DNA of 56,832 nucleotides, the filler included, from Dugesia japonica (Eukaryota): the NCBI GenBank assembly GCA_001938525.1. It is 6 parts of 6 records of this genome, joined end to end, with 100 filler letters (N's around TTAATTAATTAA, not from the genome) between each part and the next. Parts side by side here need not be neighbours in the genome. Positions count along the whole stretch, not along the records: positions 38,494 to 47,905 come from MQRL01629281.1; 5 more parts are not named here. One strand, 5' to 3'. Positions 5,300 to 54,089 of the stretch are shown here, in pieces; position 1 is the first letter of the stretch, and every line of letters begins with the position of its first letter. The position numbers and the translations under genes were made by a program. The notes below the pieces were generated by a model. That model was not told the origin of the DNA. It made no database searches and saw nothing but the letters and a program-made list of their open reading frames with translations.

Positions 5300-6073
5300 A
5301 TTCTACTTTTTTCATGAATTTCCGTAAAAATTCATCTCAAACTGACCAATCCTGAGAAAACTTTCAGCCAAATCGCTCAAAAATTAACCAAAATTAACCA
5401 TTATCGAGTAAATAATTGTCCAAAACTGACCCAAATTAACCATTCCCGAGGAAATAATTTACCAAATCAACCAAAAATTATCCAAACTGAGCAGTCCCGA
5501 GGAAATATGGAACCAATTCACCTGAACCAACCAAAACTCGACATCATTCGACATCACCGAGCCACTTGTTAACCAAATTCACCTGAACCATCCAAAAATC
5601 AATCTTATTCGACCTCACCGAGGAAAATTTCATTCAATTTTACCTTAATCACCAAAAATTTCTAATCCTGAGGAAAAATTGGACCAAAACACCTAAAATT
5701 TACCCAAACTGACCAATCCCGAGGAAATAACTGACCAAATTCACCTGAACTAATCAAAAACCTACCTTATTTGACCTCATCCAGTAAATTCTTAATCAAA
5801 TCGTTCAAAAATTACCTAAAACTGATCAAATTTACCCAAACAGACCAACCAGAGGAAATAATTACCTAAAATCATCCACAAAATTAACATTCTCGAAGAA
5901 TTTCCTTATCCAATCATCCAAAAATTTGAAAATTTAAATAACTCGGTAAACATTTCAAATAATTCGGTAAACTATTTAAATAATTCGGTAAACTATTCAT
6001 GCATTAGGAAAGTTACGTAATCATTTTTTACACACGGGGGGTACTGAATGTGTGTTGTTCTTGAGCCACACTA
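5300..6073 (-). repeat. Right arm of foldback-like inverted structure with degenerate tandem repeats
   Basis: Repeats GAG(G/T)AAATAA(C/T)T(G/T)ACCAAA, the reverse complement of the left-arm unit. Terminus on - reads TAGTGTGGCTCAAGAACAACACACATTC..CTAATGCAT. Confidence 0.65.
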
Positions 6074-10721: not shown

Positions 10722-11006
10722 TATTATCTAACAACTGATTTTCCCGTTCTTGATAGGACTTGATAATGTTGGCAAAAGTCTCAACTTGGGACTTCCACAC
10801 CCGCTCTTGATTCTGGATGGCATCCATCTCTGCTTTAAAGGTCAAACATTTCCGTCGATAACGTTTCACCTTAGCCTCGGCTTCGGCGCTCTCGGCTTCC
10901 CAACGCCTTTTAGCCAGTTTATAAAGATCCCAAGTGAGTTCCATATCCTCACTATCTTCTCGTAATTTCTTATTTGGCGCCTGGGATCTATTTAAAGATG
11001 AATGCA
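10722..11006 (-). CDS. Orphan 'ORF-A' family, copy 2 (starts at splice acceptor; 3' end cut by linker)
   Basis: tttcag|TGCATTCA then HSSLNRSQAPNKKLREDSEDMELTWDLYKLAKRRWEAE...QERENQLLDN, open until the linker. Confidence 0.65.
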
Positions 11007-11287
11007 CTGAAATATAAATATGCTTTTAAGGTGTTACACTTTATTCAGAGTTAACTGTTATTAGAAAAGTTGGGTCGTTTAGATTACAAATACTAATAAA
11101 TGAAATTAGTAAACCCAATCTCATTACCAATATATTTATGTTTTACGATTAACAAAAATGGAAACACTAAAATCAAAATTAAATTACTATTCCCCGAAAT
11201 CAACTCACAAGAAGATTTAGAATTGGTCATAAATATAATACTTATTTATTTTTAACAAAAACCAAACAGGTTAAGAAGGAATATTAT

Positions 11288-11622
11288 TATTTTCGGTGTT
11301 GGGGGCGGTATTTTCCGCATGTTCCCTTCCGGAAGGTTTTCTAATGCCCCATATTATGTTGGTTATAAAAGCTTGGACTATTGGTGGGGGGCTGGAAGCT
11401 GGTATTGGAATTGGGTGGCGTGGGTACGCTCGGGCCCATTCCATTGACGATAACTCAATCGCTCACCAAAATCCTGAATACGGTTGACTGCTGCTTCGAC
11501 GGGTGGCAGGTTAGTTCAATCTGTTAGTACACCGGCATCCCGGTTATAAGAATTGTGATACCGACGCAGGGTTAGTCGGTGGGTTCTCCTATGGATGACG
11601 CGTATCCATATAGAATCCATAT
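11288..11622 (-). pseudogene. Orphan GC-richer reading frame starting at a splice acceptor, with internal stops
   Basis: ttttattcgtag|AT ATG GAT TCT... (MDSIWIRVIHRRTHRLTLRRYH...). Composition contrasts with the AT-rich spacers. Confidence 0.3.
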
Positions 11623-11758
11623 CTACGAATAAAAATAAAACCAGTAACATTGGAGCAGTACCATATTAAGATATAATAGATGGATATAAGTAGGAAATAC
11701 ACAATTAATTTATGGTTTATTTAATCGCACAAAAAACGTGGGACATTAAAGAAAGGAG

Positions 11759-11941
11759 TCATTCTTCGTCCAAATCTACCTTCTCGTCCATTGGGGACAT
11801 CTCGGCGAAACAGCACAAGTCNGTTTCGTCCGGATGCTCTATTCTTCCACGGGTTATCATGTGAGCTATTAATTGTTTCAATCGAGTCTTCTGACGTTGT
11901 CTCTTGATCCCCTGGAGGGTACGACTAAATTCGGTGTTCAT
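11759..11941 (-). CDS. Orphan 60-aa ORF following a splice acceptor
   Basis: tcctttag|C ATG AAC... MNTEFSRTLQGIKRQRQKTRLKQLIAHMITRGRIEHPDE..DLDEE*. Confidence 0.35.
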   Translation of the reverse strand: MNTEFSRTLQGIKRQRQKTRLKQLIAHMITRGRIEHPDEXDLCCFAEMSPMDEKVDLDEE

Positions 11942-14061
11942 GCTAAAGGAATACAATTGTCAAATAGGAGATAGGACTTTAGACTTGAATTGACAAAAGG
12001 TGGTTCGCCGTTCTTACATAATTGGATTTCGCATGAGGTGTAGCATAAAAGCGCATTAATATTACTGGGACGCAGAAATGTCGATAATCACTATATCCTT
12101 TGAAATTATTAATTCATTTACTATTGCTATACTAGAAACGCTATGCTATTCGGTTAGGCAAAGTACCACCCAGGGACATATAATGAACATAATCATCTTG
12201 GTTAGGCTATTTAAATCATTAAGCAATTGTTTGTGTCCACTCAACTATTGTGAATCAAGAAAAAACATTAGTTAGAATTTTAATAATATTCAAGTAATAC
12301 TTCTGGGAAGCTAAATTAATCATTATCATACCGGTGATGATATCAATAACTATCAGATTTTACCTTATTAATATGGTTGATGTGATTATTATTTTCTATT
12401 AAAAAGAATACCAATCGAGAGATCAATAAAAAATAATATTACCACCGATCTCACTGGTGATAAACACGCATTTGCGAGTGTTGTCAGAATTTAATTTATG
12501 AGATAATTATTAATATAATTTACCACAAAAGGAAAAATAAGTATAAATGTTTTATAAATTTTTCTTTCTGCAAGCATTTAGTCGGTGAATTATCTTACTA
12601 ATTTAGCTACTTTACTCAAATTTTAAATCTTTTAAATTCGTGGATTAGCGTTGCTTAGCATTGCTAAACAACTTTTACCATATGCTGTAACTATTAACGA
12701 TTAGCTATAGTGTGTTTATTACTAATCACTTCCATCTACTAAGCAAGTGATTTTTTCTCTACCCCCGGTTAATACTCATCACANGAAAACTGGTAAAACA
12801 TGCTGCAGTAGGTATGTTTGGAATAAAAGACGATGTCATCATAAAAATTGACCAGGCCTAATAGATCACCTGGATCATGCGGTTATGTTCATTTTAGTGG
12901 CTCATACAAAACAAAATATAACTTCAATAATTTATTTTATATTAATAATACACATATACGTATTAACATTTAAAATTTATTTTAACTTTTAAATTACACA
13001 TTTATACTTACTATAAGAAATTTTCTTTTGACAACTATTTCTGCAACGGGTACTCAACTTTGGGTATTTTCCTAAAATTCTTGAAAATGATTGTCACTTA
13101 TTGGAATATCGATCGTTTTTTCTGTACAAAACAATTGTCTAATTAATTATTAGTCTGAAATAATTCAATTACTCTGTTGGTGAGTTTTAACAACCGATGC
13201 GCGATAATCGATAACACTTAAAAATTGTATGAATCCTGTCGTAATATTGATTTTTTTCCCACAATAAATTCCTCGAATTAAATTTCTTCTTTAGATACGT
13301 TTATAGTTGATAAAATTTTGATAAAAATTCGATTGTAGTTTTACAATGGTGTTTTTTCTTAACTTTTTCTGTTAAAAATCAGGGGTCCTTTTATATGATT
13401 TCTGAGACTTGTTCCAGATTTGCTGATATATTTAGATCAGCTTTTTTCTACTTCCATTAGTTCTGGCGCTAATTTTCTAAAATTTTCTATGAATTTTTGT
13501 GCTGCCATTGGTGGTTATTTTTATTATGACACCTGACCATCGTGTCTTTGTTCTATTTTTATTTTCAGGATTCTCATTGGCCCGATCTTCAGGACCCTTC
13601 AGCAACCTTCTGAATGATGGTAAGTTCTTCTCCTTTAGCTTCTTTGATGCGTCTTGTTATTCTCTTTTCACTTTTTCTTATCCCGATTCTTTTNNNNNNN
13701 NNNNNNNNNNNNNNNNNNNNNNNNNNNNNNNNNNNNNNNNNNNNNNNNNNNNNNNNNNNNNNNNNNNNNNNNNNNNNNNNNNNNNNNNNNNNNNNNNNNN
13801 NNNNNNNNNNNNNNNNNNNNNNNNNNNNNNNNNNNNNNNNNNNNNNNNNNNNNNNNNNNNNNNNNNNNNNNNNNNNNNNNNNNNNNNNNNNNNNNNNNNN
13901 NNNNNNNNNNNNNNNNNNNNNNNNNNNNNNNNNNNNNNNNNNNNNNNNNNNNNNAAAAAAAAGTTTTGCCAGCGGGGGAGGCTTTTTAATGAAAAATCAA
14001 AAGTGGCATCAACGATTCGCTTCCCTGGGCTTGCCAGTTTTGGCAAAACTAAAGCTCCACA

Positions 14062-14320
14062 AATAATACACTCATAAGCCCTATATTACATTGTTGCTAT
14101 GTCAATAAAACATGGTAACTATGATTTGTTATCTGACTTATATAAATGAATCTTATAATACAAGGTATCTATGCAAGTAATACCCTCATAAACCATATAT
14201 TTCATGGTTGTTATGTAAATAATACAAACATAAACCCTATAATACACGGTTACTATGTAAATAATACACTCGTAATCCTTATAATGCAAATACTATACTC
14301 ATAAACCCTATACAATCAAA
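14062..14320. repeat. Degenerate minisatellite (about 42-bp unit)
   Basis: Recurrent AATAATACACTCATAAACCCTATA...GGTTACTATGT variants. Confidence 0.6.
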
Positions 14321-17189
14321 AATATTTTCTTATAAGTTTTTATATAGACTTTTTAGTTAAATATTGAAAGGTTCCATGAATTTATGATTTTTATGAAAAA
14401 AGTTTTAGGTTTTTTATAATTTTGTACAGAAAAGCTTTTATGATTATAATTATATTTCATTTTCATTGTTTACTCAATTATTATCCAGATTCTAAATCGT
14501 GGATATTGAAAACAACATATATTTTAACAAATGACCAAAAAAAAAATTTGAAAATTGTTCGATCTGAATCAATTCACATTTAACACAGAAACAAGTTTCA
14601 TAAACCCTGATATAACACAATCTGTATTACTAAAATTCATTGTCAATCTATCGTCATGTTTTTTTAAAAATGTAAAGTCAATTTAGGTTTCGTTCAAAGT
14701 TTTTAAACAGAAATGCCAAGTNTAGTACCCAAAAGCATATTGCCAGTTATAAACTGGCTTTCCAGAGAAAGCTTGCTGTGTATATTTTTCGACTAATCAA
14801 CTCTCAAATTTAGCACTTATTCAATCGCTTATTTAATATTTATCACTATTACTTATTAACATCATTTAAATTTAATCTATTCATTAGGGGAATTTAATTA
14901 TACTTTATAATAGTAAAAATACTTAATCTAGGATTTATACATGAATAGAAAAGCTATTTATTTTCTGTTTCTAAATTACATTAAGTCAAACGTCGGTTTG
15001 GTAATTTTTACAATATGGTAATATAACATTGTCAAATGAAGATCGATTACAAAACCAAATTTTAATTAAATTTAATTATAATTCATTGATTGAATAAATA
15101 GAAAACAATGTACTCTTCGATAAAAAAAAATTTCTTTTCTTTTCGATCAAGAATTGTGGTCCTAACGAGGACCGTTTTAACATTCCCAAATAATACCTTT
15201 TCATAGTGGTATTAAAAGAAAAAAAACAAACTTTGCATTTAGCATGTGTAAATCTTCTACTGCGAATCCAAATTTTGATAAGCAGTTTGATAAGGTTTTG
15301 AAAAGGGATCAAATTATTGGTATTTGTAAGCTACCACTTTCAGCATCCTCAAAATAAAAATCTTCAAGTAAAACATTGTCATGATCTGTCCTAGGCTGTA
15401 TATACAATTATTTATTTATTTTTATAAGAATTTTACTTGTAAGTTCAGAGTTTAATTTGTATTATGTTACAAAATTGAGTAATGAATATACGTTAGACTA
15501 CTAAAACAAAGTTATTAATAAAAGAAATCGGGAATCCAAAAGAAAATTAATAAATAAATAAACTATGACTAGGAGCAAATTTAGAATATTAAGAACAAAA
15601 TATGATGAATTAAACTTGATTTGATTGAAAATAAGTTAATAAAGTTAAAATTGCATATGGGATTAAATCACACCAAGATTAATGTGAGTAAAATGGATTA
15701 GGAAAGTAAAATTAAACTAAAATAAGAGCATAAGAGCCAAATGAAAGCAAAGTTAGAATCTTGGAATGAAAATAAATTAGAAATAATAAAAGTAAAGATA
15801 TGCAAATTGAAGTAGTAAAATCGAAGCAAAATAAGAATATTAAAATGCAATTGAATCAATTTAAATTAAGAATGTTAAAGTAACTTGAGCATTTTATAAT
15901 TACAATTATTGTGAGAATAATTGTTGGACTTAACCATTGATCGGATTTGAGTTTTCTTTAAAATAAGATAAAGCTTCGATCAAAATAAAATTTATTTGTA
16001 AAAAAGTTCAAATTTTCGACAATAGTCTTCTTCAAGAACATGTTGGCTTCTTGAGATATTTTAGTAAGATTATTAAGGCTAAAACAGGCGGAGCATATTA
16101 AATTAAAGTATGCATATTGTAATTGAAGTAAAACTAAATTGAGCATACTAAGTAAAATAAATTGAAAATATTGAAACTAAAGTAAACTCAGCATCCTAAA
16201 GTAAATAAATTGAATCAAGTACAAATCCAATATATCAAAACAAATGAAGAATTTTGAAGTAATCAAAGTATGAAAACGAAAATCAAGCTTATTATGATTA
16301 AGAGTATCGAAAACCCAGCAAAACAGATTCGAAAAAGTGAATATATTATTAAGTGTATTATGGTTAAGAATGAAGCAAATTCGACATGAGTAGAGTAAGA
16401 GTATTGAAATTAATGTGAACTCCGGATCTTAGAGTAATAAGTATGAGTAAGTTAAGAATATAAAAAAATGAAGTAAATTAAGGGTTCACAGAGAGGTCCT
16501 CCTACCTCACAAGCGTGGCTAAAAACAAGGATTTACAACAGACTAAGAAAATAAGATTGAAGGCCGGAAGAGTTTGCCTGCAGTTTAAATGGTACTCCCG
16601 CATATTTTATGGATACCCGGCCGGCCATAATAGTTCGTCTGCTACTTAAATCGTACTCCCAACGCGCCTAGGAGCAGAAAATTTGACAAAATTAAATCAA
16701 CACAACCCACAGAAAGACTTAGTACAATAAGGTGCCTCAACTGTCATGCTAGCCGAGATTAGTAGTTGTGAAATTGGTCTGATCAACCAGACATCTGAGA
16801 TACGATCGGCTCAGTTGTCCACAGCAAAAGCTGCTTGAGTAGTTATGACTGTCATAAAATGAGGACAGCGACAGGATCGGAAGGGAAAGCCAGTCTCGGT
16901 GGAAAGCGATAAACCATCCACGTTTTATACATGGTTACGAATCTTAGATGTAAGTAACGGTAGTACACTTACTTCCAGGACGTACTAAGTATACTTCAGA
17001 GAACACGATCAATTCAGATCTAGGCTTATACAAGTCTCATAGTAGCCACAGCTACTGGATTTAACCAACTAACTCGTCACCAGAAATATTTAATGGGCCT
17101 GTTTAAGCAAAAACAACTCATGAAGGCAACGAACAGTATCGCCTCCCTCTGATCAAATCGACAAAATTTAACTGGTTGTTCCAAACATA

Positions 17190-17500
17190 AGCAATTTGCA
17201 AATAAATTATAAGAGTAAATTACAGAAGGATATTACGTGTTAGACAGCAAAGTTATACAAAGATTGTTACAGTTCAGAAGCAAAGTGCGAATAAATATTG
17301 TACTTCAAATGTAAATCACAAAAGGATATTACGTTTTAGACAGCAAAGTTATATAAAGATTGTTACAGTTTAGAAGCAAATTGCAAATAAGTATTGTATT
17401 TCAAGAGCAAATCACAAAGGGTTATTACGTTTCAGACAGCAAAATGATACAAAAATCATTACAGTTCATGAGCAAAATTACAAAGGATTAATACATTTTA
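17190..17500. repeat. 96-bp tandem repeat, about 3 copies, upstream of a Gypsy gag
   Basis: GG(A/T)TATTACGT..AGACAGCAAA at 17228, 17324 and about 17420. Confidence 0.85.
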
Positions 17501-17769
17501 TAAGTAAAATAAGTATTTTATCTAAAGGGTGAATTACAAAAAGTTATTATTTCTCATAAGCATATTACATAAGTAAATTACAATGGAGTGATTGTATCTC
17601 ATAAGCAAATTACTAATAAGTAATAAAGTAATTATTAAATCAAATTTAAAATTCGATATTAAATNNNNNNNNNNNNNNNNNTATTGAATCAAGGTACAAA
17701 ATTGATAATGAAATCAAATTACAAAATCAGTCAGTAACTGCAAAATAAATACGAAGGACATCATAGGCT

Positions 17770-19344
17770 TAAAATGCGACTTTAAAATGAATCCCCAGTG
17801 ATAGTAAGTTAGGAATCAGTTATCAGCAGAAAACGAGTAGATATTAATCAGCAGCCCTAATAAAGAGTTCGACGAGGACGTCGAATTTAAACAAACCGAG
17901 GGTGGGTGAAGAGATGAAAATAACTTTAACAAATGTATGACTTAGATTAAAGGGTAAATGGTAGCGGGGGTTATCTAAAAGAATAATGTGTTACAGGTAC
18001 CTAACATTCGTTGGAGCAAGCACAATCGAGTCGGAAATCTTTGTAACAATTGGCACTATCTAAGTAAATTAGTGTATAATTATATCTTTTATAGAAATAT
18101 GCAAAGAAAATCATTAGAACGTTATCGCGAACAAAAAAGTAATGGAAGAAGGAGCAGTAAAAGAACAAGAAAATAAACGTATTTGGGGACTCTATGAACA
18201 ACTTGCAGGAAGGAAACAAAGGAAAAATGAAACCTGCCAGGAGTTTGCAGCCGCAATAATAGATTTTGCAAAATTAGCGGATCTAAAAAATGAACAGATG
18301 ATAAAAAAATGTTTCAGATCCGGCCTACGAGACCCATTGGTAAGAAACCATGTAGCTTCAAGCAAACCTCTTGATTTGACTACTGCTATATTAAAATCAG
18401 AAGCAATGAATAAAGTATTAGCAGAACAACGACTAATTATCGAGAAAGAAACCGTTAGTCAATGAACAATATATAAGCAAAATAGATGCCAAAATTGTCG
18501 GAGAACTCACCACAGTACCAATCAGTGTACAATCATCTATATATTTTGCAGCATTTGTGGTCGGAAAAATCACCCCATGGATAAATGCTGGCAAAGATAT
18601 TATAGTAAATGCGGAAAGAAGGGGCACCCTGAAGAGAGATGTCTACTCAAGAGAATCAGAATAGAAGAGGATCAAAGTTCAAGAGATGATAACGAAGTTA
18701 ACACAACTCATAGCTAACAAAGTGTGAACCAAAGTAAAGAATCAACTAAATTGCACATGCTAAGAACCAAAGTACCTGAGAGCCTAGGAATTAATGAGGT
18801 ATTACCAAAGACTCAGCGAGTACAAAAATGTTACAATTGTAACAAACAAAAGCACTAAGCTAAAGATTGATAAATAAAAAATAAAGTGTGTTATATCTGT
18901 GGAAAACAGGGCCATATCGCAAGACTATGTCGACACAGAATAGACNNNNNNNNNNNNNNNNNNNNNNNNNNNNNNNNNNNNNNNNNNNNNNNNNNTCGGA
19001 GAACTCACCACAGTACCAATCAGTGTACAATCATCTATATATTTTGCAGCATTTGTGGTCGGAAAAATCACCCCATGGATAAATGCTGGCAAAGATATTA
19101 TAGTAAATGCGGAAAGAAGGGGCACCCTGAAGAGAGATGTCTACTCAAGAGAATCAGAATAGAAGAGGATCAAAGTTCAAGAGATGATAACGAAATTAAC
19201 ACAACTCATAGCTAACAAAGTGTGAACCAAAGTAAAGAATCAACTAAATTGCATACAGAACAACATACAAACAACATACAGAAGCAGATTTCCAAATCCC
19301 AACAAACAAATCAACCAAACCAATTCAATTCAAATTCAAGAAGA
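17770..19344 (+). mobile_element. Ty3/Gypsy-like LTR retrotransposon gag remnant with several zinc knuckles
   Basis: RKQRKNETCQEFAAAI...IKKCFRSGLRD capsid-like segment. CCHC knuckles CYICGKQGHIARLC and CSICGRKNHPMDKC, plus a degenerate one, SKCGKKGHPEERC. Confidence 0.8.
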
Positions 19345-32293: not shown

Positions 32294-32858
32294 CCATAAT
32301 CCAACAGAGAATAAAGAAAATACAATGGCACTTCTAATATTGTTTATTTGCCAAGGCTTAACATTGTGCAGAATTCCAGTATGGGTGTTTGACCAGCGAT
32401 TTGTAAGATAACAAAACGAAACAAACCATAAAAATGTCCAAAGCCCTACAAATTATAATTATAATGATTACTTTTTTTTAATAAAACCTGAAAATCCAAC
32501 ATCTCCTAGTATTATATGTTTTCTACGTTTAATATTCGAAACATTATCAAAAACTATATCACTAATAATAAAACAAATTGCTCCCAAAAAAGCTATAACA
32601 CCAATGCCAGTTCCAAAACTACACGCACTATTATCTTTATTGTATAAGCATATGTTATTTGAACGACCACCAGATGAAATGCAACCGAAAACAATAATAG
32701 AGAAGAACTTAATGATAATAAATAAATATATACAATGAATCAATTATATAACTAACAAGGCTAATAATCCTACAGATCAGTTGTGGTTTTAATAAAACGG
32801 AAGCGAAATCAAATCGTAAACTAGCTTTAGCAGCTGACATCAAATTTGCAGGATCCAT
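32294..32858 (-). CDS. SYNGR: Synaptogyrin (MARVEL domain). Exons 32858-32757, 32707-32488, 32445-32294; 3' exon(s) not resolved
   Basis: Spliced product MDPANLMSAAKASLRFDFASVLLKPQLICRIISL|FFSIIVFGCISSGG..CLYNKDNSACSFGTGIGVIAFL..SNIKRRKHIILGDVGFS|GLWTFLWFVSFCYLTNRW..RSAIVFSLFSVGLW. GT-AG introns of 49 and 42 bp. Confidence 0.92.
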
Positions 32859-38493: not shown

Positions 38494-38683
38494 TGACATT
38501 ACTCTGAATCCACAATAAAATGTTTTTCTTGTTGTTTGTGTATTTAAAACAATAAATAAGTGACTCTGTTATCTTAATTTGATTCATTTCAATGTGTATT
38601 GTTCAGTGAAAACTTCTATTCTACATTAATATGAGGATGTATTTTCTAAGCATATTCTATTGATTATAATTATAAACTTTTAG

Positions 38684-39042
38684 TGCATTCTTCTTTGAAT
38701 CGACCTGCAATTCCCACGAAGAAATTGAGAGACACCAGTGAGGAAATGGAGCTCACTTGGGACCTATATTGACTGGCAAAACGTCGATGAGAGGCCGAGA
38801 TGGCCACCGCTAACAGTAAGGTGACTCGTTATAAGAAAAATTGTATCGCTTTCAAGATGGAAGCCGAGGCCTCCCACTTGCAGGAGCGAACTTGGAAGAA
38901 ACAGGTTGAGTCTTTTGCGGAAGTTATCCGATTCAGCCATGACCGAGAGAATAAACTAGTTAATGATATTTTACTTCTCCGAGAAAGAATACCTCTCGAA
39001 CCGTTGATGATCGAGAAGGGGACCCAAACTCATCGGAACTAA
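38684..39042 (+). pseudogene. Orphan 'ORF-A' family, copy 3 (two in-frame TGA)
   Basis: ttttag|TGCATTCT HSSLNRPAIPTKKLRDTSEEMELTWDLY*LAKRR*EAEM...QERTWKKQVESF..DRENKLV. Confidence 0.65.
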
Positions 39043-39164
39043 TTCACATAGTTTTTGTAAATAAAATTGCCGTTCAACTTTTGTTACGAATTTAGTTATT
39101 CATCTTAATGTTTTACTTGGATTTTGCTGTCAGGTTGTTTATATATTAATTTAATTTCTTTCAG

Positions 39165-39547
39165 TGCCTCGCATCGCCTTCCCCAATAACATCCGCAGGT
39201 GCCACCGCATAATGCGCCGTCTGCTGGTTGAGCCCCATCTAAAGCGGAAAACCGATAAAGCTCTGCTTAGACATTTGAACCAACAGGATCGTCTAATTAA
39301 GAAGCTTGACTACATTGTGATAAAACAAAATAACCTAGCAGCGCAGACAAAGGTCTTGGAGAATGAAAATAAAATGTTATTGCAAAGGAAAATAGATTTC
39401 CTCAAGCAATACATTTTTGACCTTTCTCGTCAATTAGGAAAGCCTACCTGGGTCCAATGGGACGACAACGACGACGTCGCCGCCTTCAATTTTTCGATAA
39501 CTCATCCGGACCAGTGGTTAGACCCTGGCGTACTAGACGAGTTATAA
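39165..39547 (+). CDS. Orphan 'ORF-B', coiled-coil-like, starts at a splice acceptor
   Basis: tttctttcag|TG CCT CGC... 127-codon open frame, GC-richer than flanks, no ATG at its start, AATAAA about 12 bp after the stop. Confidence 0.55.
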
Positions 39548-39726
39548 ATGTTATGTTAATAAATGTTTTCAAGTGTCATTGGGTTAAATTTAGGTGTAGG
39601 TAAGGGAAAATAGTGAACCCGAATAAAAAGGCTTATGGGCGCGTACTTCCCATTAAGAGTGAGGTTAACCACCATATGCTGAATACCTAACTTAGGGGCA
39701 TTAAGTTAAATTCTTGAAAGGGTCCC

Positions 39727-41357
39727 CTAAGGGCTGTTTTTTCGCCAGCCGCACTTTTCTTCATCTAACTCAGGTGGAACCCCAACACTTCTTAACCCGA
39801 TAAATAAATGGCGGGGAATATTTTGCATGATATCGAAGACAAGGGTTGTTATTACCGGTTCGATTGCTACATTCAATTGAATTTTCGATTGACAGTTTTC
39901 AGTAGTAATATTTGTACAGGTTACTTTGGTAGCTGAGTGATATATTTTAACAGCTGGATTTTGTTTTCTTATTCGGTCCGTTAACTCTTGGCTTATGACA
40001 TAAAGGTCAGCACTTGTATCGAACATAATTTTGATTGTTAAACCTGCTCCTTGACATTCTACAATCAGTTTGTTTCTTTCTTTTTCTGGTCTGGAGTAAG
40101 AGATGACTATTGATTCGTATCTTTTTAACTTTTGTTTTGATTTTGCTGCTTGGCCGTATATGAAGTTCACGTATTTTTTCTTCTATTGAAGGTTTTAGAT
40201 TTTTTATAATCTCTTTCAATTTTTCTTTATTCCATTTTTTCTGTAACACTAATTGGTTTGTTTGAGTCTCTTGGTTGTCCTCTCGTTCTGTTATACTGAT
40301 TGAATTATATTCACATTTTTCCTCATTATTTTTGCTATAGAACATTAATTTATTGTTTTCTTGGAAAAATCAGGCTATATGACCTCTTCGCCCACATTCA
40401 AAACATTGTTTATTTCAGCAAAATTGCGCGATGTGTCCTTCTTTTCCACACTTGAAACATTTCTTATTGATTTTTTTCTCTTTTCTATGGGTTATATGTT
40501 GGTTTTTTTTCTTGTTTTGATTTGTTGTTTGGATAAGCCCTTTTAGGGTTTTCAGTTACTTTCAATTCTTCTATTTCTCTCCTGAGTTTCTCTATTTCTA
40601 ATTTTAAGGCTTTAGCCGTGATTTTTTGTATCTCTTATTGAAAATTAAATTTTCTTCTTTGTCATTAGGTTTCTCATCTTTAATAGTTTCCACAGCCTTA
40701 TCTAGCGTTTTAGGTTTAAACAGTTCTAATACTATCGCCATTCACCCGTTAATCAACTCATTCACAAATGCTTTTACTAGGATTTATTCCTTCATTTCAT
40801 TAATGTTAAGACATTGCATTCTCAGCTTCTTGGCGTAATACGTTAAAAATTCGCTATTTTTCTGTCTTATCTCAAAGACGGTCATTTTCAAGCTTATCTT
40901 TGTCTTTTTGACTTCGCATAAGTTTATTAAAAATTCTTCGTAGCTTTCCATGGTTTCTTTAGATTCGCCAAATTTTTGATTGCATCTAATTTCTCTTAAA
41001 AGATCCTCGTCATAGGATTTTAAGAAAATTGCCTTCTTCTCACTTTCGATGATGCCAGAATCATCAGATGGTTTCACGAATTCTTCCACGGCATTTGGGT
41101 GTTTTTTGATCGTTGTAGGGCTCTCCCTATTTTTCTAGAGGATGAATAGTTTAGAATCCTGTTCATTAAATATGAACTTTTGTAGGATTGCGTGCTGCTC
41201 ATGTAACGCCATATTAGATTCTAAACTCGATTTTATTAAAAGATACGTTTAATAGATAAGTAAAAATATATATTTCATAACAAACTTTGTTTTAATATTT
41301 TTGGTTTTTTAGTTTTTTAATTTCAATATAAATTGAAATTAATTTCACTTTATATCA
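39727..41357 (-). mobile_element. Ty3/Gypsy-like LTR element: putative 5' LTR (41357-41212), PBS, gag, aspartic protease; RT/RH/IN deleted
   Basis: TG...CTAATA followed by TGGCG (PBS-like). Gag segment FEIRQKNSEFLTYYAKKLR and protease IKIMFDTSADLYVIS. Interrupts the Polinton protease gene. Confidence 0.7.
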
Positions 41358-41556
41358 TAATCGAATACCGGTATATTTTCTGGCTTATTGTACATTGCTA
41401 ACCAATGTTCTCCAACGAGATTTGATGATTGAGTATGGATGATTATGACCTTATTAACTCGAAAAAATAGTAGCTTGTTCAATGGATAGACATAAACAAA
41501 CTCGGATCCAAACTATTTTGTAGCAATTTTATTTATCTGAATTGAACTACTAAAGT
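41358..41556 (-). pseudogene. Adenain-like cysteine protease of Polinton/Maverick (N-terminal part)
   Basis: SSIQINKI...FVYVYPLNKL...IIIHTQSSNLVGEHWLAMYNKPENIPVFD matches NTxxSxxPGEHWVA...FDS. Confidence 0.8.
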
Positions 41557-41619
41557 AATATCAAAGAATAATCAAAACTTACTTCATTTTGGAAAACTAC
41601 TTTCATGATATTGAAATTG

Positions 41620-42400
41620 TTTTCATTAGTATTACTGTCTCATGTAATTTGAATTTCACTTTAGAATACTCCATAAACTTTTATATTTGCTGGTGTAATC
41701 AAAGCACTTCCAAACCTGATATCCAATCTTATCTTTCTTTGTTAAGGCAATTGACTCTGATTAATATCAAAATCCAGAGCAAGTACAAAGGTAAAGAATG
41801 GATATTTGTTTTTAAATTCCTCTAAAGTTATTCCACAATTCATATTCTTGTTCAGATATACCATATTTATTATTACTGATTGCATGTATGATGTGCTATA
41901 ATTATCATTTTCAAAGTCTTGGGTATATGTTACTCGAAAATCACCGTTTTTCGATAGAGTTAATGATTTGACATTGAAATTATCAAAATTTGATGTTTTA
42001 AAGTGTCTATTATATCTATCTCGTCTTTGAAATGTACCAAAAATAAGTTGGGCAATTGACAATTTCTAAAGATTTGCTACTTAAAAAAGATTGCACTATC
42101 TTTACTGATTGCATTAGCTACAATTTCCTTGGTCCTTATTGGATGCATTGCATTTTTGCTTCTTTTATCCGATTTGATGACCTGTTAGTACTGATGATTC
42201 AACTCAAACGTTTCTAACGATTAATTTTGCATCAAGCAATACAAATTTAGATTCTTCAGTTGACGTTTCTAAACCCATTCTATTGGCTGCTCTCTTCATT
42301 CGAATGTGAAAATTGACACCTGGAATAAGATATTTTGGTTGATCCGTGAAATTCAGTTGCAAAGAATTAGATAATGACAAGGCTTTGATGATTTAGTTGA
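41620..42400 (-). pseudogene. Polinton/adintovirus major capsid protein (C-terminal part)
   Basis: LQLNFTDQPKYLIPGVNFHIRMKR..KFVLLDAKLIVRNV.VESSVLTGH..HPI..; FDNFNVKSLTLSKNG..DFENDNYSTSY..GITLEEFKNKYPFFTFVL..IRLDIRFGSAL...IKVY. Confidence 0.8.
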
Positions 42401-43017: not shown

Positions 43018-44619
43018 TATTAGATAAATTCAAAACCTCACAACTCTCTGTAAGTTTTTATTTATTATGACAAGTTTTTTGATTAAAGCTAAAATGATGA
43101 AGAACAATCCATAGTATTCAAACAAATAATCTGAGAAGTTTTTAATAAAATATTTTAAAAATAAGTAAATGGTTACCTTGCCTAAATTCCATAACCATAT
43201 CTAGGCTACTTAGAAAATGCATCCAAGTCTGAAATTGCGGAGTAATTGGCTTCTTTGTCTTTTTCATAACAAACTTGTAAACCTTTTCTTTTACATCATT
43301 GTAATCCTCTTCTCGTTTATCTACGTTTTTTTATTTGTATAATTATTGATACTACTTTTACTATAATTAACAATACTGCAATTTTTTGAGATACTTAACT
43401 CAACGCTTCAACAATCTAGACTTCGATCGGAGCTTGACTATTTGGGTATTCATCTTGATAAATATTTGACCCTTCATTACAATAGTGACATATGGCTTCT
43501 CTACATGCACAATTTTTCCTATTTTCTTCAATTGAATTAACGTGACTTCCATTCCTTCTTGTGGAATTATTCGTATTGTTCGAATAATATCTTTGTTTAC
43601 CATTTCCGAATACTTTTCGGGTCTGTTCACTTTTGTTTTGATAACTAAACTTACTATTCATATTTGTGTAACAGTCTTCTGTGAGGTGTGCTTTCTTGTT
43701 TCATCTTGAGCAACTAACTTTGGTATAGTTTCTTCTTAAGTGTTGTTCAGATCCACAAGCATAGCACTTTTTTTTCTTTCTTGACAAGTTCTGCTTACAT
43801 AACCTATTTTGTTACAGATCAAACATGTGATTTATCGTATTTCGTTGTTTCTGTTCTGCTTTATTCTTTCATTACGACTCTTGTTGAAATTTCTTTGTTC
43901 TGGACCTCTGCGGGCTGTATCTTTGTAGTTAAGAACTACATTTATTCTTCAGTTTTTACTTCGTGTTTTGTGTCTTCCCACTCTTATATTGTTTTAAATA
44001 CATCTTCTAGATTTTCTATTTTTCCTGATTCGATCATATGTTTATTCTTTCTGTCATTGCAACTATTCATTATTAGCTACTTTGTTATGTCATCTTTGTT
44101 CCATTTATGAGCCATTAACTTCTCTACCATTTCTTCTATCTTCTTCTTATTGATACTCACATGCTCTCCATTCCTTCGATAATTTGGGGCTTTCTCCATA
44201 TCTTTAAAGATTATTGATGGTCTAAAGAAAGCCTTTCTGAATCTTTCTTCAAATCCCAATGATTCGTCTTCATTTTCAAAGATTTTACGTAGTTCTTTAT
44301 CTATAAAAGCAACTACAAACAAACTTCTATGGCCTTTCTTTATTTCGGCTATATAAAAACATTTCGCTGTCTTTAGAATACATTTTTCGACATCATCGCC
44401 TATTTTGAAAATTCATGGGTGCATTGCTTTTTTTTATAAAATCCAATGATGCGTTGGTCGCATATTAGTTAAATTCAAAACTTCACAACTATCCATAAGT
44501 TTTTATTTATTATCACACGTTTTTGGATTAAAGTAAAAAGGATGAAGAACAATCCATAGTATTCAAACAAATAATCTGAGAAATTTTTAATAAAATATTT
44601 TAAAAGTCTCTTAAGTACA
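43018..44619 (-). mobile_element. Gag-only LTR retroelement with about 150-bp direct repeats, nested in the Polinton
   Basis: Direct repeats 43018-43169 and 44463-44619 share GATGAAGAACAATCCATAGTATTCAAACAAATAATCTGAGAA. Degenerate PBS TGCGACCA. Gag with knuckle remnants CYACGSEQH and HLTEDC. Confidence 0.75.
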
Positions 44620-46504: not shown

Positions 46505-46825
46505 TTATGCAAAATTTGCTAGACCTAATATTGCTAATGCAATAGGTAGTAATGCGGCGATAAAACCACCATGTTGTTTGTACAATATTTTCTTCATTAA
46601 TTTCTTATTCTTGGTATGCACAAGCGATAGCAATGACTTTTTATGTTTTTCTAATGTTTGTTTTCTAACTTTACTTATAACTACATTACCACGAACTATG
46701 TTTACAATAATTTCTAATAAATCATCAACAACAAATGATGGAAATGATTGCAACATTTTTGATCTAGACTCTTTTGGAGCCTTGAGTAATATATTAAAAT
46801 ATGGAAGACTTTGTTGATATTTCAT
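46505..46825 (-). CDS. Small basic Polinton/adintovirus virion protein (adenovirus pX-like C-terminus), intact ORF
   Basis: 106 aa; EIIVNIVRGNV and KKILYKQHGG/FIAALLPIALAIL (GG protease-site-like motif followed by a hydrophobic helix). Lies between the ATPase and the integrase. Confidence 0.75.
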   Translation of the reverse strand: MKYQQSLPYFNILLKAPKESRSKMLQSFPSFVVDDLLEIIVNIVRGNVVISKVRKQTLEKHKKSLLSLVHTKNKKLMKKILYKQHGGFIAALLPIALAILGLANFA

Positions 46826-47115
46826 AACTTTCTATTAAAAACACACACACACACAAAGTTATTTGTTTATAACTTTATCCATTTTCCATTTACATTTGAT
46901 AACTTATTTCCAAAGTGTTTTGCTAATTTCTTAAACTGATTTAACGGCTTTGATTGTTCTTCTTTGTTGACTTATTTTTAATAACAATCTCTGTTGTCTT
47001 CTTTATTGCTTTGATATCTTTTGTAATGTTATCTTGTTTAATTTTTTTATTCTTGAGTTAATTAACTATAACTTTAATAAATTTTGCAATTTGTAAATAA
47101 AATAAAAAATTACAT

Positions 47116-47711
47116 TTATTGTTTATATGCGGTAACACTGTTTGGATTGAAAAAATCAGTTCTCATTCTAGGTTGATCTGAACATTGTTGTACAAAGTCC
47201 GTAAGAGATATCCATATGGATTTACTGTTGCGTATTTGAATGAATCCAAAAGAAATTGTCTATTGTTTGTACATGCCAGAAAATCAAAAACTGTTTGCTC
47301 TCTTGGATTTTTAAATAAAACCAAATATTGTACATTTAAATTACGAGTTTAATGCCCACCTTCTTGATGTAATAGATTCTGAGTAATAAATATTACAGTC
47401 ACAATACAGTGTCTTGATATCTTGATGAATAGATTGTTAAAGTCATTTTCCTTGTTTTTTTATTGGTATAAATCATCAACAACAATCATATCACATTTAG
47501 ACAATCTCTTGCTCCGGTTTTCATCTAAACCATTTATAATTTTCATGTTTTTATCACAGAATTCGGATTGAGTTAATACATGATCCTCATCAGCTTCTCT
47601 ATACCAATATATATTGTTTAATTTTGATTTTAATAGTTTATACACAAAAAGAGTTTTTCCACTTTCATTTGGACCGACAATTTGATAAACGGCATCATTT
47701 CTTAATTCCAT
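47116..47711 (-). pseudogene. Polinton packaging ATPase (A32/FtsK-like)
   Basis: Walker A GPNESGKT, Walker B IVVDDL, then ISRH..TVIFITQNL, LNVQYLVLFKNPRE and ATVNPYGYLL/D..RMRTDFF. Two stops and one frameshift. Confidence 0.92.
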
Positions 47712-47905
47712 TATTGTTTGCTTTAATGTATCAATTAAATTATTGTTTATGTATATGTATATATTCTTTTTTTAAAACTTTATTGACATAATTATGATTT
47801 CAAATATTAATTACGGAGGTAAAGTTTAACAGGAAGTTACTAGAAGTTACTAGAAAACCATTACAATGCAAAACATGAACAAAGAAGATGACTCATACAT
47901 ATTTT

Positions 47906-48005: not shown

Positions 48006-48302
48006 TAATGAAATTTAATTTAAAAAATGAAAAAAACCGGAAAGAATATCTCAATAATTCCTCAAAAATAAAAATATGATGAAATATAATTTATCAAATA
48101 ATTCATTTGGAGCCTCTAAAGTCGTAGCTCTTGGTACAAACACTCCATCCGCTTCTCCATTAGCTACGGCATTGCATATGTTTGAAAACTTATTGATTAA
48201 ACCGGTATTCATTTCCGTTAAATATCAATTCACGAATATTACATAAACATTACGCAATATGTGGATATTTAAACTTTAAAAAACTAAAAAATTATATTAA
48301 TA

Positions 48303-48998
48303 ATGCAATTAGCAGAAAATTCAGGAAATTCAATCGAAAATTGTAACCTTTGCAACAAGTTAGCTACATCTCATTTATTATATTTAAATTGTCCACATGG
48401 ATACCATCATACTTGTCTATTCAATTATTTTATTCGAACTGGTAATTCATGCTGCCGAATTTGTTTAATTCCGGTAAAACGTTTTTCAACTCTTCTAGAC
48501 AATTCGCTGCTATGTGGATTATATTATAAAAATGAGCCTCGGTTATTTCAAGTTGGTTATAGTTATATACGAAATCTTAACAGTGTAGGGTATGCGTGTT
48601 TAATAGGTTTGTATAGAATCCAAACACCTTTGGGATTGAAAATAAAATTAATCAACACACCATTTAAAGAATATATTTATTTGTCAAATGAAAACGATCG
48701 TTTCAATATTTCTAAAGAAGCTTTCGAAATTTTAAAGTGTAAGAAGATAGAAATCAACATTCCGTACTCAAAGAACGAAAAAGCCCCTGAAAAAATGTAT
48801 GTTGATGTATTATGTCAACATAAATTCCTTTCTCTTCTTTGTAGAATTCCAATTAAAAACGGTCTACAAATAGATAAATTTCCAATAATTGATGAAATTC
48901 AATATATTGGAAAGAGACTTAATATGTCAGATGTCGGTTTGACGAAAACTGATAAACCCAAATTGAAAATTTCTTTAAGTAATAATTTATGGGCTTAA
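48303..48998 (+). CDS. Intronless RING-H2 finger protein with unrecognised C-terminal domain, paralogue 1
   Basis: Intact 231-aa ORF. C-x2-C-x12-C-x-H-x2-H-x2-C-x12-C-x2-C. Full-length similarity to 53144-53860. Confidence 0.85.
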   Translation: MQLAENSGNSIENCNLCNKLATSHLLYLNCPHGYHHTCLFNYFIRTGNSCCRICLIPVKRFSTLLDNSLLCGLYYKNEPRLFQVGYSYIRNLNSVGYACLIGLYRIQTPLGLKIKLINTPFKEYIYLSNENDRFNISKEAFEILKCKKIEINIPYSKNEKAPEKMYVDVLCQHKFLSLLCRIPIKNGLQIDKFPIIDEIQYIGKRLNMSDVGLTKTDKPKLKISLSNNLWA

Positions 48999-53143: not shown

Positions 53144-53860
53144 TCAGCTGTAAATATCTCGACAAAATAATTTACTTTTCAAAACTATATTTGATTTCAT
53201 GGTTTTGTAATTTGTAGTCGAAGAAAACCAATAAAGTTTTCTACCAAATTCTCTAATTTCATTGAAAAATGGGAAATCATTGTAGCAAAATCCGTTCCTA
53301 GTTAAAATCGTACAACACACCACGAGTACATTCAATTTATTTATAATTTCTACTTTCATGTCTGTAATATGACCATTCGATATTGATGATCGAGACAAAT
53401 TCATTGGAATGAACACTTTTAATTTCTTACAGGATAAATCTCTGCATTGTTTCTTTGTGATTTGCATATGATTATTTTCATTTGGTATTGTGACAAACTT
53501 TTTTATTAGACTACCTTTCAGTGTAATTTTTAATGCTACAGGAAAATTTATTTCATATAAGCCTATTAAACAAATAAAACCGTCAACACGACATTTGTCT
53601 ATGTAAGAATATCCAATTTGAAATAGGGTTTTTTGATTACTACAAAATATTTTGCAGAGTTTATTGTCTACAAATAAATGCAATTTTCTCCACAGAGATG
53701 CACATATAGGGCAATTTTGTGATTTGTGTTCAATTGTGTAATTGATAAGACAAACATGGTGGAATTTATGCTCACACGAAATCTCTGCTAACTTCTCATT
53801 ACCTAGTAAACAAATTGAACATTTTTCAGACTTTCTCAACGAATTTTTCAGTCTTTCCAT
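53144..53860 (-). CDS. Intronless RING-H2 finger protein with unrecognised C-terminal domain, paralogue 2
   Basis: Intact 238-aa ORF. C-x2-C-x11-C-x-H-x2-H-x2-C-x12-C-x2-C. Shares LFQ(V/I)GYSYI, CLIGLY, NEN, CKK and FPxxxEIxxxGxxL with paralogue 1. Confidence 0.85.
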   Translation of the reverse strand: MERLKNSLRKSEKCSICLLGNEKLAEISCEHKFHHVCLINYTIEHKSQNCPICASLWRKLHLFVDNKLCKIFCSNQKTLFQIGYSYIDKCRVDGFICLIGLYEINFPVALKITLKGSLIKKFVTIPNENNHMQITKKQCRDLSCKKLKVFIPMNLSRSSISNGHITDMKVEIINKLNVLVVCCTILTRNGFCYNDFPFFNEIREFGRKLYWFSSTTNYKTMKSNIVLKSKLFCRDIYS

Positions 53861-54089
53861 ATTGTTAACAAAAATTATGTTTAAATAATTTAAATGTGGC
53901 TTATAATTAATGAGATTATGTAATTATCACGTAAGATTAGGTAACTTAATGTAGGAAAATTTACACAAATTTTATTTTATCTGTTTACAATTTCATAAAA
54001 TTAAAATTTTGCAAAATTAAAAATTTTAATTGCAAAATTAAAAATTATTTCAATAATAATATAAACTTAATTTAAAAAAAAAAATCTTC

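Follow-up and report, generated by a model that had tools for sequence, protein, structure and literature searches.

What are two tandem open reading frames (ORFs), neither of which has a start codon where it begins, doing beside the oppositely oriented gag and protease genes of a Ty3/Gypsy retrotransposon? The question arises in a window of 56,832 nucleotides, filler included, from the genome of Dugesia japonica (assembly GCA_001938525.1); by 'the window' we mean the whole stretch of DNA that was analysed, which comprises six contigs of 8.6-10.6 kb each, joined by spacers, has a GC content of 28% and is densely packed with transposon fragments. The two frames, ORF-A and ORF-B, lie at the start of contig 5 (38494-47905, from MQRL01629281.1) and are referred to here as the cassette. 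The original prediction took them for spliced accessory genes carried in antisense by the adjacent Gypsy element. Linkage was examined in the window, in two relatives of that element recovered from metagenomes (L001 and L002) and in public reads, and we conclude that the cassette is a real array of accessory exons, probably spliced and probably undescribed, which belongs to a high-copy mobile element of an animal and was wrongly tied to its neighbour.

In the explanation that we prefer, several small accessory exons would stand in a row close to one end of a second repeated element, ORF-A and ORF-B being the last two. This carrier, likely an LTR (long terminal repeat) retroelement, would have inserted into a dead compact Gypsy, with its end breaking up the protease there. 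One upstream leader would be spliced to alternative last exons, each closed by its own poly(A) signal; being non-coding and ending in A, it would complete a start codon (A/UG, the slash here and below marking the splice junction) for ORF-A and ORF-B, while two further modules, C and D, would each supply an ATG no more than 2 nt from the junction. To the whole of this explanation, a spliced array in a nested element with the cassette in the sense orientation of its carrier, we assign a probability of roughly 45%.

ORF-A and ORF-B as probable acceptor-led exons

The features of the two modules, and of the further copies of ORF-A in the window, are as follows.

38661..38683, + strand: T-rich 3' splice acceptor of module A, ag/TG; position kept in the copy at 11006
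38684..39042, + strand: putative last exon with ORF-A, 118 codons; a dead copy, with stops at 38770 and 38788 and its end at 39040-42
39060..39065, + strand: AATAAA, 18 nt past the ORF-A stop
39142..39164, + strand: T-rich 3' splice acceptor of module B, ag/TG
39165..39547, + strand: putative last exon with ORF-B, 126 open codons; basic N-terminal half, leucine heptad, acidic tail
39558..39563, + strand: AATAAA, 11 nt past the ORF-B stop
10722..11006, - strand: second ORF-A copy, with an ag/TG CAT acceptor, open to the contig end
3..302, + strand: third ORF-A copy, truncated where the contig begins; final codons matching in a different frame

As originally described, T-rich acceptors with ag/TG stand at 38684 and 39165, each followed by a frame in phase 1 that has no ATG at the junction and ends in a stop of its own. 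Both acceptors sit at a step in GC content, from about 20% to about 50%. When both strands of the window were scanned for a T-rich YAG/TG followed by 90 codons with at most two stops, a criterion chosen after the sites were known, 38684, 39165 and the acceptor of the second ORF-A copy (11006) were the only sites returned. Of the two frames, ORF-B is open, but ORF-A is not intact: the original prediction overlooked its two internal stops. Reading TGA as Trp in ORF-A was rejected, because one of the two stops aligns with Lys in both homologues.

Comparison of the three copies of ORF-A nevertheless reveals protein-level conservation of the kind expected of an accessory ORF. The copy at 38684 is 54-59% identical in protein sequence to the other two, which are 79% identical to each other. 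Differences fall at third codon positions in 52 of 101, 57 of 106 and 30 of 47 cases in the three copy pairs. The ratio of non-synonymous to synonymous substitution (dN/dS) is 0.18 and 0.07 in two pairs, dS being saturated in the third, and the Fisher test for selection gives P < 1e-8 in all three. Around the acceptor, identity to the 11006 copy is 40% over the 60 nt upstream and 67% over the 60 nt downstream. A stretch of 20 codons leads from the acceptor to the first ATG of ORF-A; 13 of its residues are kept, six of them through synonymous change, and its remaining two frames are closed in both copies. As the codons that precede the ATG are conserved, translation would enter from an upstream exon. 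By these comparisons ORF-A is coding and under purifying selection as far as the acceptor. ORF-B can be regarded as a putative coding exon on the strength of its open frame, which survived in 19 of 20,000 shuffles of its own bases. We therefore consider it very likely that the ORFs are coding exons that depend on splicing.

A row of modules and a candidate leader

ORF-A occurs in three of the six contigs, each time at or near a contig end. Upstream of its second copy, in contig 2, lie two more modules and a candidate donor.

11290..11622, - strand: module C, with acceptor ag/AT ATG at 11622; GC-rich, decayed, AATAAA at 11250
11762..11942, - strand: module D, with acceptor ag/C ATG at 11942; 59-codon ORF, basic then acidic, AATAAA at 11721
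13006..13011, - strand: candidate splice donor A/GTAAGT, the sole GTAAGT on the minus strand of 10722-14400

The array follows a common plan of acceptor, ORF, stop and AATAAA. The distance from stop to AATAAA is 18 nt in A, 11 nt in B and 41 nt in D, and the spacing from an AATAAA to the next acceptor is 105, 133, 99 and 244 nt. A scan of the entire window for acceptors at a step from AT-rich to GC-rich sequence gave seven sites, all within cassette regions. TG or ATG stands at the junction in all four of the unrelated modules A-D, as against 49 of the 472 T-rich YAG sites in the window, a comparison tallied after the fact. Comparison revealed no relationship between A and B or between D and B. 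The order of modules varies between copies: there is no match to C or D in contig 5, and nothing resembling B follows the third ORF-A copy.

The junctions constrain the kind of leader that could serve the array. Module D is in phase 2 and A, B and C are in phase 1, so a single coding leader cannot serve A-D; a non-coding leader that ends in A would account for the junctions of all four. From the arrangement of the modules we judge it reasonably likely that they share a leader, and put the chance that splicing completes an A/UG start at about even. A long ORF that ends at 13011 was considered as coding sequence and rejected, as it has nine stops and no codon pattern. Coupling of splicing to early termination is on record for Ty1/copia (PMC5580714).

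The array might alternatively be an operon-like unit resolved by spliced-leader trans-splicing and not by a leader in cis. The spacing of 99-244 nt between poly(A) signal and acceptor lies inside the 300-bp limit used for operon candidates in flatworms (PMC12582326), in keeping with such a unit. The flatworm leaders described in the same source end in ATG, however, and in the present modules such an ATG would open phase-0 frames of only 4-16 codons, while a leader without ATG would leave the conserved codons of ORF-A before its ATG untranslated. Neither a leader ATG in frame nor an own ATG free of coding constraint upstream, the patterns of a flatworm spliced-leader operon, was found, and we regard this alternative as quite improbable.

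Exons of a host gene family caught among transposons would also show canonical acceptors and purifying selection. Against such an origin, each module closes with a stop and AATAAA, the order of modules varies, the copies are decayed, the array abuts the end of a repeated element, and no homologue of ORF-A was found among 1.84 billion representative sequences apart from one repeat-driven bacterial match. A host origin is, in our view, scarcely credible.

An element end separates the cassette from the neighbouring Gypsy

To the right of the cassette lie the following features.

39602..39613, + strand: candidate polypurine tract, 11 of 12 purines, directly before TG
39614..39787, + strand: candidate 174-bp 3' LTR of the carrier; right end (..CCAACA) backed by reads, left end putative
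39788..41212, - strand: decayed gag-protease of a separate compact Ty3/Gypsy, delimited by tblastn with protein P0001; about 35 C-terminal protease residues lost, no pol
41212..41359, - strand: 5' LTR (about 146 bp) of that Gypsy, then a PBS-like (primer-binding site) TGG at 41211; match-loss border before 41360

P0001 (517 aa) is the closest protein relative of the gag-protease; Pfam recognizes in it zf-CCHC and an aspartyl protease. By tblastn its residues 1-352 match at 59% identity and residues 350-482 at 75%, the latter being the figure for the protease, and among the loose ends listed (that is, the points at which reads or contigs stop matching) reads lose their match left of 41360, the outer LTR border. 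The LTR-PBS-gag-protease unit that had been reported on the minus strand is thus present, but it is decayed by stops and frameshifts and is accompanied by no pol in the contig. The window itself supplies an LTR, a PBS-like site, a gag with CCHC and a protease as Ty3/Gypsy features; the order of reverse transcriptase, RNase H and integrase (RT-RH-IN) comes from the relative L001.

The interval of about 180 bp between cassette and gag-protease is no neutral spacer. Similarity to the protease ends at about 39788, the last 60 or so nucleotides of the protease ORF as first listed being other DNA, and the end of an element lies within the interval at 39787. There the + strand reads ..CCCCAACA. Public data for 38494-41400 came from three raw RNA runs out of seven, together with a set of contigs; 6-25% of each RNA run was read, which gave 23, 112 and 18 matched reads, mostly less than 90% alike. 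Among the loose ends listed, six RNA reads and two contigs stop matching at 39787/39788, and their flanks beyond this point differ both from the window and from one another (agreement 0.73-0.75). A TG..CA terminus with variable flanks is what an LTR retroelement would present. By a rough measure, counted at 80% likeness, the contigs together reach a depth of 90-1160 between 38688 and 39851 and of 4-16 between 39852 and 40142. Varied flanks together with this drop in depth are the signature of an inserted element's end, and, with the end of protease similarity, indicate that the cassette most likely lies in a second element nested in the protease. On these grounds we hold it highly probable that the cassette belongs to an element separate from the neighbouring Gypsy.

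Complete relatives of the Gypsy bear on the same point. A metagenome scan for relatives of the gag-protease gave two confirmed cases (L001 and L002) out of 142 pattern matches. Both are complete circular elements of about 5.1 kb, with LTRs of 161 and 117 bp and the layout LTR, PBS, gag-protease, RT-RH-IN, and then a purine tract and LTR directly after integrase. Neither has a match to ORF-A or ORF-B or any extra ORF (0 of 2), and the source contig of P0001, at 5208 nt, is of the same size class. The remaining two copies of ORF-A are not beside this gag-protease family, contrary to the expectation that all copies would be linked to one LTR family.

The original prediction would require the cassette to be the antisense post-pol region of the compact Gypsy, joined to the protease by a deletion of pol. 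Orientation and position would fit if pol had been deleted, Grande, RIRE2, Retand and Boty have antisense ORFs in the stretch from pol to the 3' LTR (PMC7264820), and the relationship of L001 and L002 to P0001 is distant, at no more than 43-46% identity. Nevertheless, exactly at the junction an element ends, its flanks are heterogeneous and the depth changes in a step; neither complete relative has extra ORFs, and the other ORF-A copies have no such gag-protease alongside; moreover, with no pol in the contig and the protease cut at 39788, the cassette was not found between the pol and 3' LTR of one element. We consider the post-pol origin very improbable. What survives is the idea of a probably spliced accessory-exon cassette of a mobile element, in that the sequences are coding, acceptor-led and multicopy; what falls is its membership in the adjacent antisense Gypsy.

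Further observations concern the compact elements themselves. Their gag begins right at the LTR/PBS border, where the final A of the LTR and the TG of the PBS together make its ATG, at 41212-41209 (- strand) in the window, at 3421 in L001 and at 2509 in L002. The pol frame overlaps the end of gag-protease in another frame (L001 4980-5227, L002 4053-4200), so that pol is probably expressed by frameshift in both, as far as the frames indicate. The L001 and L002 contigs are circularly permuted, with terminal overlaps of 120 and 99 nt.

The nature and orientation of the carrier

The end at 39787 admits more than one kind of carrier. In the reading that we prefer, a purine run followed by TG (39602-39614) would make 39614-39787 a 3' LTR on the + strand, and the cassette would therefore be sense to its carrier, in the position of env. 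Of all 6096 TG sites that the window contains, 36 are preceded by such a purine run; locally, the test covered 11 TG sites. Among the loose ends listed, six contigs lose their match left of 39603, the start of the purine run, and related ends keep it only right of 39706, as might be expected for a conserved R-U5 segment.

If the carrier ran on the minus strand, TGTTG at 39787 would open a very long LTR, in an element as large as Burro, with the same array antisense inside that LTR. ORF-A lies near contig ends in half of the contigs, as LTR-borne sequence would, and the first bases on the minus strand agree with TGTNR, the pattern found at Gypsy ends (PMC2836005). The antisense placement would also escape the conflict between internal poly(A) signals and genomic RNA, and giant Gypsy elements with accessory ORFs occur in thousands of copies in an AT-rich animal group (PMC6431247), an AT-richness that the window shares. 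However, contig 2 yielded no distant LTR end followed by a PBS, neither the purine run nor the loss of match at 39603 would be explained, and the likeness to Burro is one of description. We view a long minus-strand LTR as unlikely.

If the carrier were instead a DNA transposon, either Ginger-like or unclassified, whose termini begin with TGT, the outer end of a terminal inverted repeat (TIR) would lie at 39787 and the modules would be spliced cargo genes. The minus strand does begin with TGTTG, in agreement with the TGTNR ends of Ginger elements, which have TIRs of 40-270 bp and may contain introns (PMC2836005); the flanks at 39787 all vary among the loose ends listed, and depth is greater over the terminal block than over the cassette. 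On the other side, the four nucleotides outside the end are CTTC, whereas Ginger1 targets CCGG/CCGT, the window contains the end in no inverted copy, and no transposase is linked to it. A carrier of this class seems improbable.

Within the cassette element, poly(A) RNA covered the terminal block 39658-39787 best (depth about 6, in run X2), and in the X9 contigs this block is about four times deeper than the adjacent cassette. Rfam gave no family, and the terminal 130 nt fold no better than shuffled sequence (z -0.7 and -1.1). A resemblance of the terminus to tRNA-Gln was set aside because the flanks vary.

In contig 2, at 16041-19344 (+ strand), 96-bp tandem repeats occur in a long leader of higher GC content, and behind it comes a decayed gag that has several zinc knuckles; with a possible LTR start, TGTTGG, at about 16041, this region resembles the 5' part of a large Gypsy element. 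Its gag (from 18118 onward) was tried as the cassette's own and left unproven, since a gap and an unrelated repeat intervene.

Expression data and points against a nested, spliced array

A number of observations weigh against the reading of the cassette as a spliced array in a nested, sense-oriented carrier. As to splicing, no spliced read was found at 38684 or 39165 in the three RNA runs, where depth was near zero; the runs gave no joint, none of the nine contig joints uses the two acceptors, and no loose end falls at either of them among the 19 listed (215 more exist). Two contigs span the acceptors unspliced, in a run that may be DNA. The donor candidate at 13011 can alternatively be read as a double stop followed by AATAAA and is ambiguous. 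A fifth, weaker candidate acceptor (12244) has no start at its junction, C and D are known as single decayed copies, and ORF-B as one copy, with three synonymous and three non-synonymous read differences among the 40 of 511 rows listed. In a sense-oriented array, the internal poly(A) signals would endanger the full-length genomic RNA.

As to the carrier, the window shows the cassette linked to none of gag, pol and integrase, the contig-2 gag being parted from it as described above. The candidate LTR termini agree in only 3 of 8 nt, an AATAAA lies only 8 nt inside the candidate LTR start, and the purine run has a chance of about 6% of arising among 11 TG sites. No read joins 39787 to a constant PBS among the rows listed, and no read of an intact Gypsy running on through the protease is present among the 19 listed loose ends. 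The distance of L001 and L002 from P0001 counts on the same side.

Separately, about a dozen poly(A)-library reads at 38785-38978, from one run (X2), derive from a diverged relative of ORF-A, and a handful more in a poly(A) library lie over the terminal block.

Predicted products of ORF-A and ORF-B

The expectation that the cassette encodes novel proteins held up: no relative of either was found in the sequence libraries tried, and ORF-B gave no significant fold match. Searches of Pfam, PHROGs and the PDB by sequence gave nothing significant for ORF-A or ORF-B, a word-index protein search restricted to near lengths was blank for both, and viral contigs, metagenome contigs and prokaryote genomes contained no relative of the cassette proteins. 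The sole match of the ORF-A alignment to the 1.84 billion representatives, obtained with HMMER, was to a bacterial MucBP repeat protein (E 7.6e-4), which was rejected as repeat-driven. In the ESM Atlas, ORF-A met only unnamed clusters at low recognition and ORF-B had no usable match.

An intact copy of ORF-A is modelled as a single helix of 85 residues (residues 10-94, pLDDT, the predicted local distance difference test, 91). LC8 anchors may take the form K-x-TQT, which occurs four times in the 113,660 six-frame residues of the window, and the C-terminus of the 38684 copy reads KGTQT. The TQT motif is the canonical LC8 anchor (PMC8615749). The third copy has the related GAQT at the same place, in another frame; the anchor is complete in one ORF-A copy only, a further point to be set against our interpretation. 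ORF-A is thus predicted to be a coiled coil that ends in an LC8-type TQT anchor.

ORF-B combines a basic N-terminal half (net +12) with an acidic tail (net -7), and its heptad L44-I51-L58-L65-L72 falls within a predicted helix of 60 residues. Despite the heptad, no Pfam bZIP profile matched at E up to 0.1. Fold searches with ORF-B yielded no match at E < 1, the one match in the PDB being to the bZIP of MafB at a non-significant E of 1.8. Neither protein contains a membrane segment, the maximum hydropathy over 19 residues being 0.85. From the models, the products are likely to be soluble helical proteins, dimeric adaptors or regulators that would serve the element.

Comparison with known systems

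Most of the accessory genes known from animal retrotransposons are single ORFs in the position of env. The spliced ORF3 or env genes of errantiviruses, springer and bdelloid elements likewise provide an extra ORF near the 3' end, and by analogy a spliced message is to be expected here. The ORF3s of rotifers are diverse and include small coiled-coil types (PMC5408684), and in env of the springer subclade the splice joins the AU dinucleotide of the start codon (bioRxiv 10.1101/2023.08.03.551782). The present array differs from these in that it lines up four or more small modules that are unrelated and have separate poly(A) signals, in a start codon that would be split as A/UG and not AU/G, and in that pol of the carrier is not seen. 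Unlike errantivirus env, the products have no membrane segment, no similarity to env and no match to any family at the curated cut-off, and are modelled as helical, so that nothing points to a fusion glycoprotein. By analogy, the array likely works like the spliced env-position accessory genes of Gypsy elements.

The antisense ORFs of Grande (maize), RIRE2 (rice), Retand (Silene) and Boty (Botrytis) are also orphan ORFs of elements, as well conserved as the other proteins of those elements (PMC7264820), whereas the cassette is antisense only with respect to a different, neighbouring element and its modules are startless and probably dependent on splicing. HBZ of HTLV-1 is a spliced accessory protein whose translation begins in the first exon (PMC1459196); it has in common with ORF-B a basic stretch and a leucine heptad, but ORF-B has no Pfam bZIP match, belongs to a set of several exons and would, in the reading that we prefer, be sense to its carrier. 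Burro and GYPSM1 are high-copy elements with accessory ORFs in the AT-rich genomes of dugesiid planarians (PMC6431247, PMC11410931), and only in such a host could Burro be a candidate for the carrier. The accessory functions described for them reside in upstream ORFs or in domains of one huge polyprotein, and the portion of PMC6431247 available mentions no spliced array of small exons. In the literature searched no such multi-exon array was found described; Repbase entries and the primary Burro paper fell outside the search and may depict one.

The major late unit of adenovirus joins one leader to many alternative acceptors and uses several poly(A) sites. The parallel is one of architecture only, as adenovirus is a DNA virus without sequence relation to the cassette. 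We tentatively extend the preferred reading to a very abundant animal LTR lineage with a virus-like late unit, in which a short non-coding leader ending in A would serve an exchangeable array of at least four unrelated last exons through an AUG made by splicing, subfamilies would swap modules and the products would regulate the host cell for the element; taken jointly, this is a doubtful proposition. An array of several orphan last exons would mean that a high-copy animal element encodes a small regulatory repertoire. Exons without a start codon are missed by ordinary ORF callers, and this may explain the lack of relatives in the protein libraries searched. Either way, the apparent antisense arrangement with gag-protease most likely arises from nesting, and the exact junctions of the array are open to testing by reverse transcription PCR.

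Other features of the window

The compact Gypsy itself appears to be inserted in another element, fragments of which lie at 41400-42400, 46505-46831 and 47460-47771 (- strand), which would give three levels of nesting. These fragments resemble Polinton/Maverick capsid, small core and packaging ATPase genes, for which library searches returned a weak AAA match and nothing further. Direct repeats of 143 nt at 43018-43160 and 44463-44605, 92% identical, flank a decayed gag-like region of 1.3 kb, and 43018-44605 may be a small, internally deleted LTR element.

Elsewhere in the window, long inverted arms of repeats of about 31-42 bp at 1844-2280 and 5359-5874 surround fragments of non-LTR retroelements, an arrangement of the foldback type. 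One host exon among the transposon fragments lies at 32468-32743 (- strand) and matches a MARVEL domain (E 1e-6); it is presumably synaptogyrin-like and identifies the host as an animal. Two intronless ORFs, of 236 codons at 48288-48998 (+ strand) and 259 codons at 53144-53923 (- strand), each have an N-terminal RING finger; their remainders look alike by eye, and they possibly represent a mobile or expanded family.

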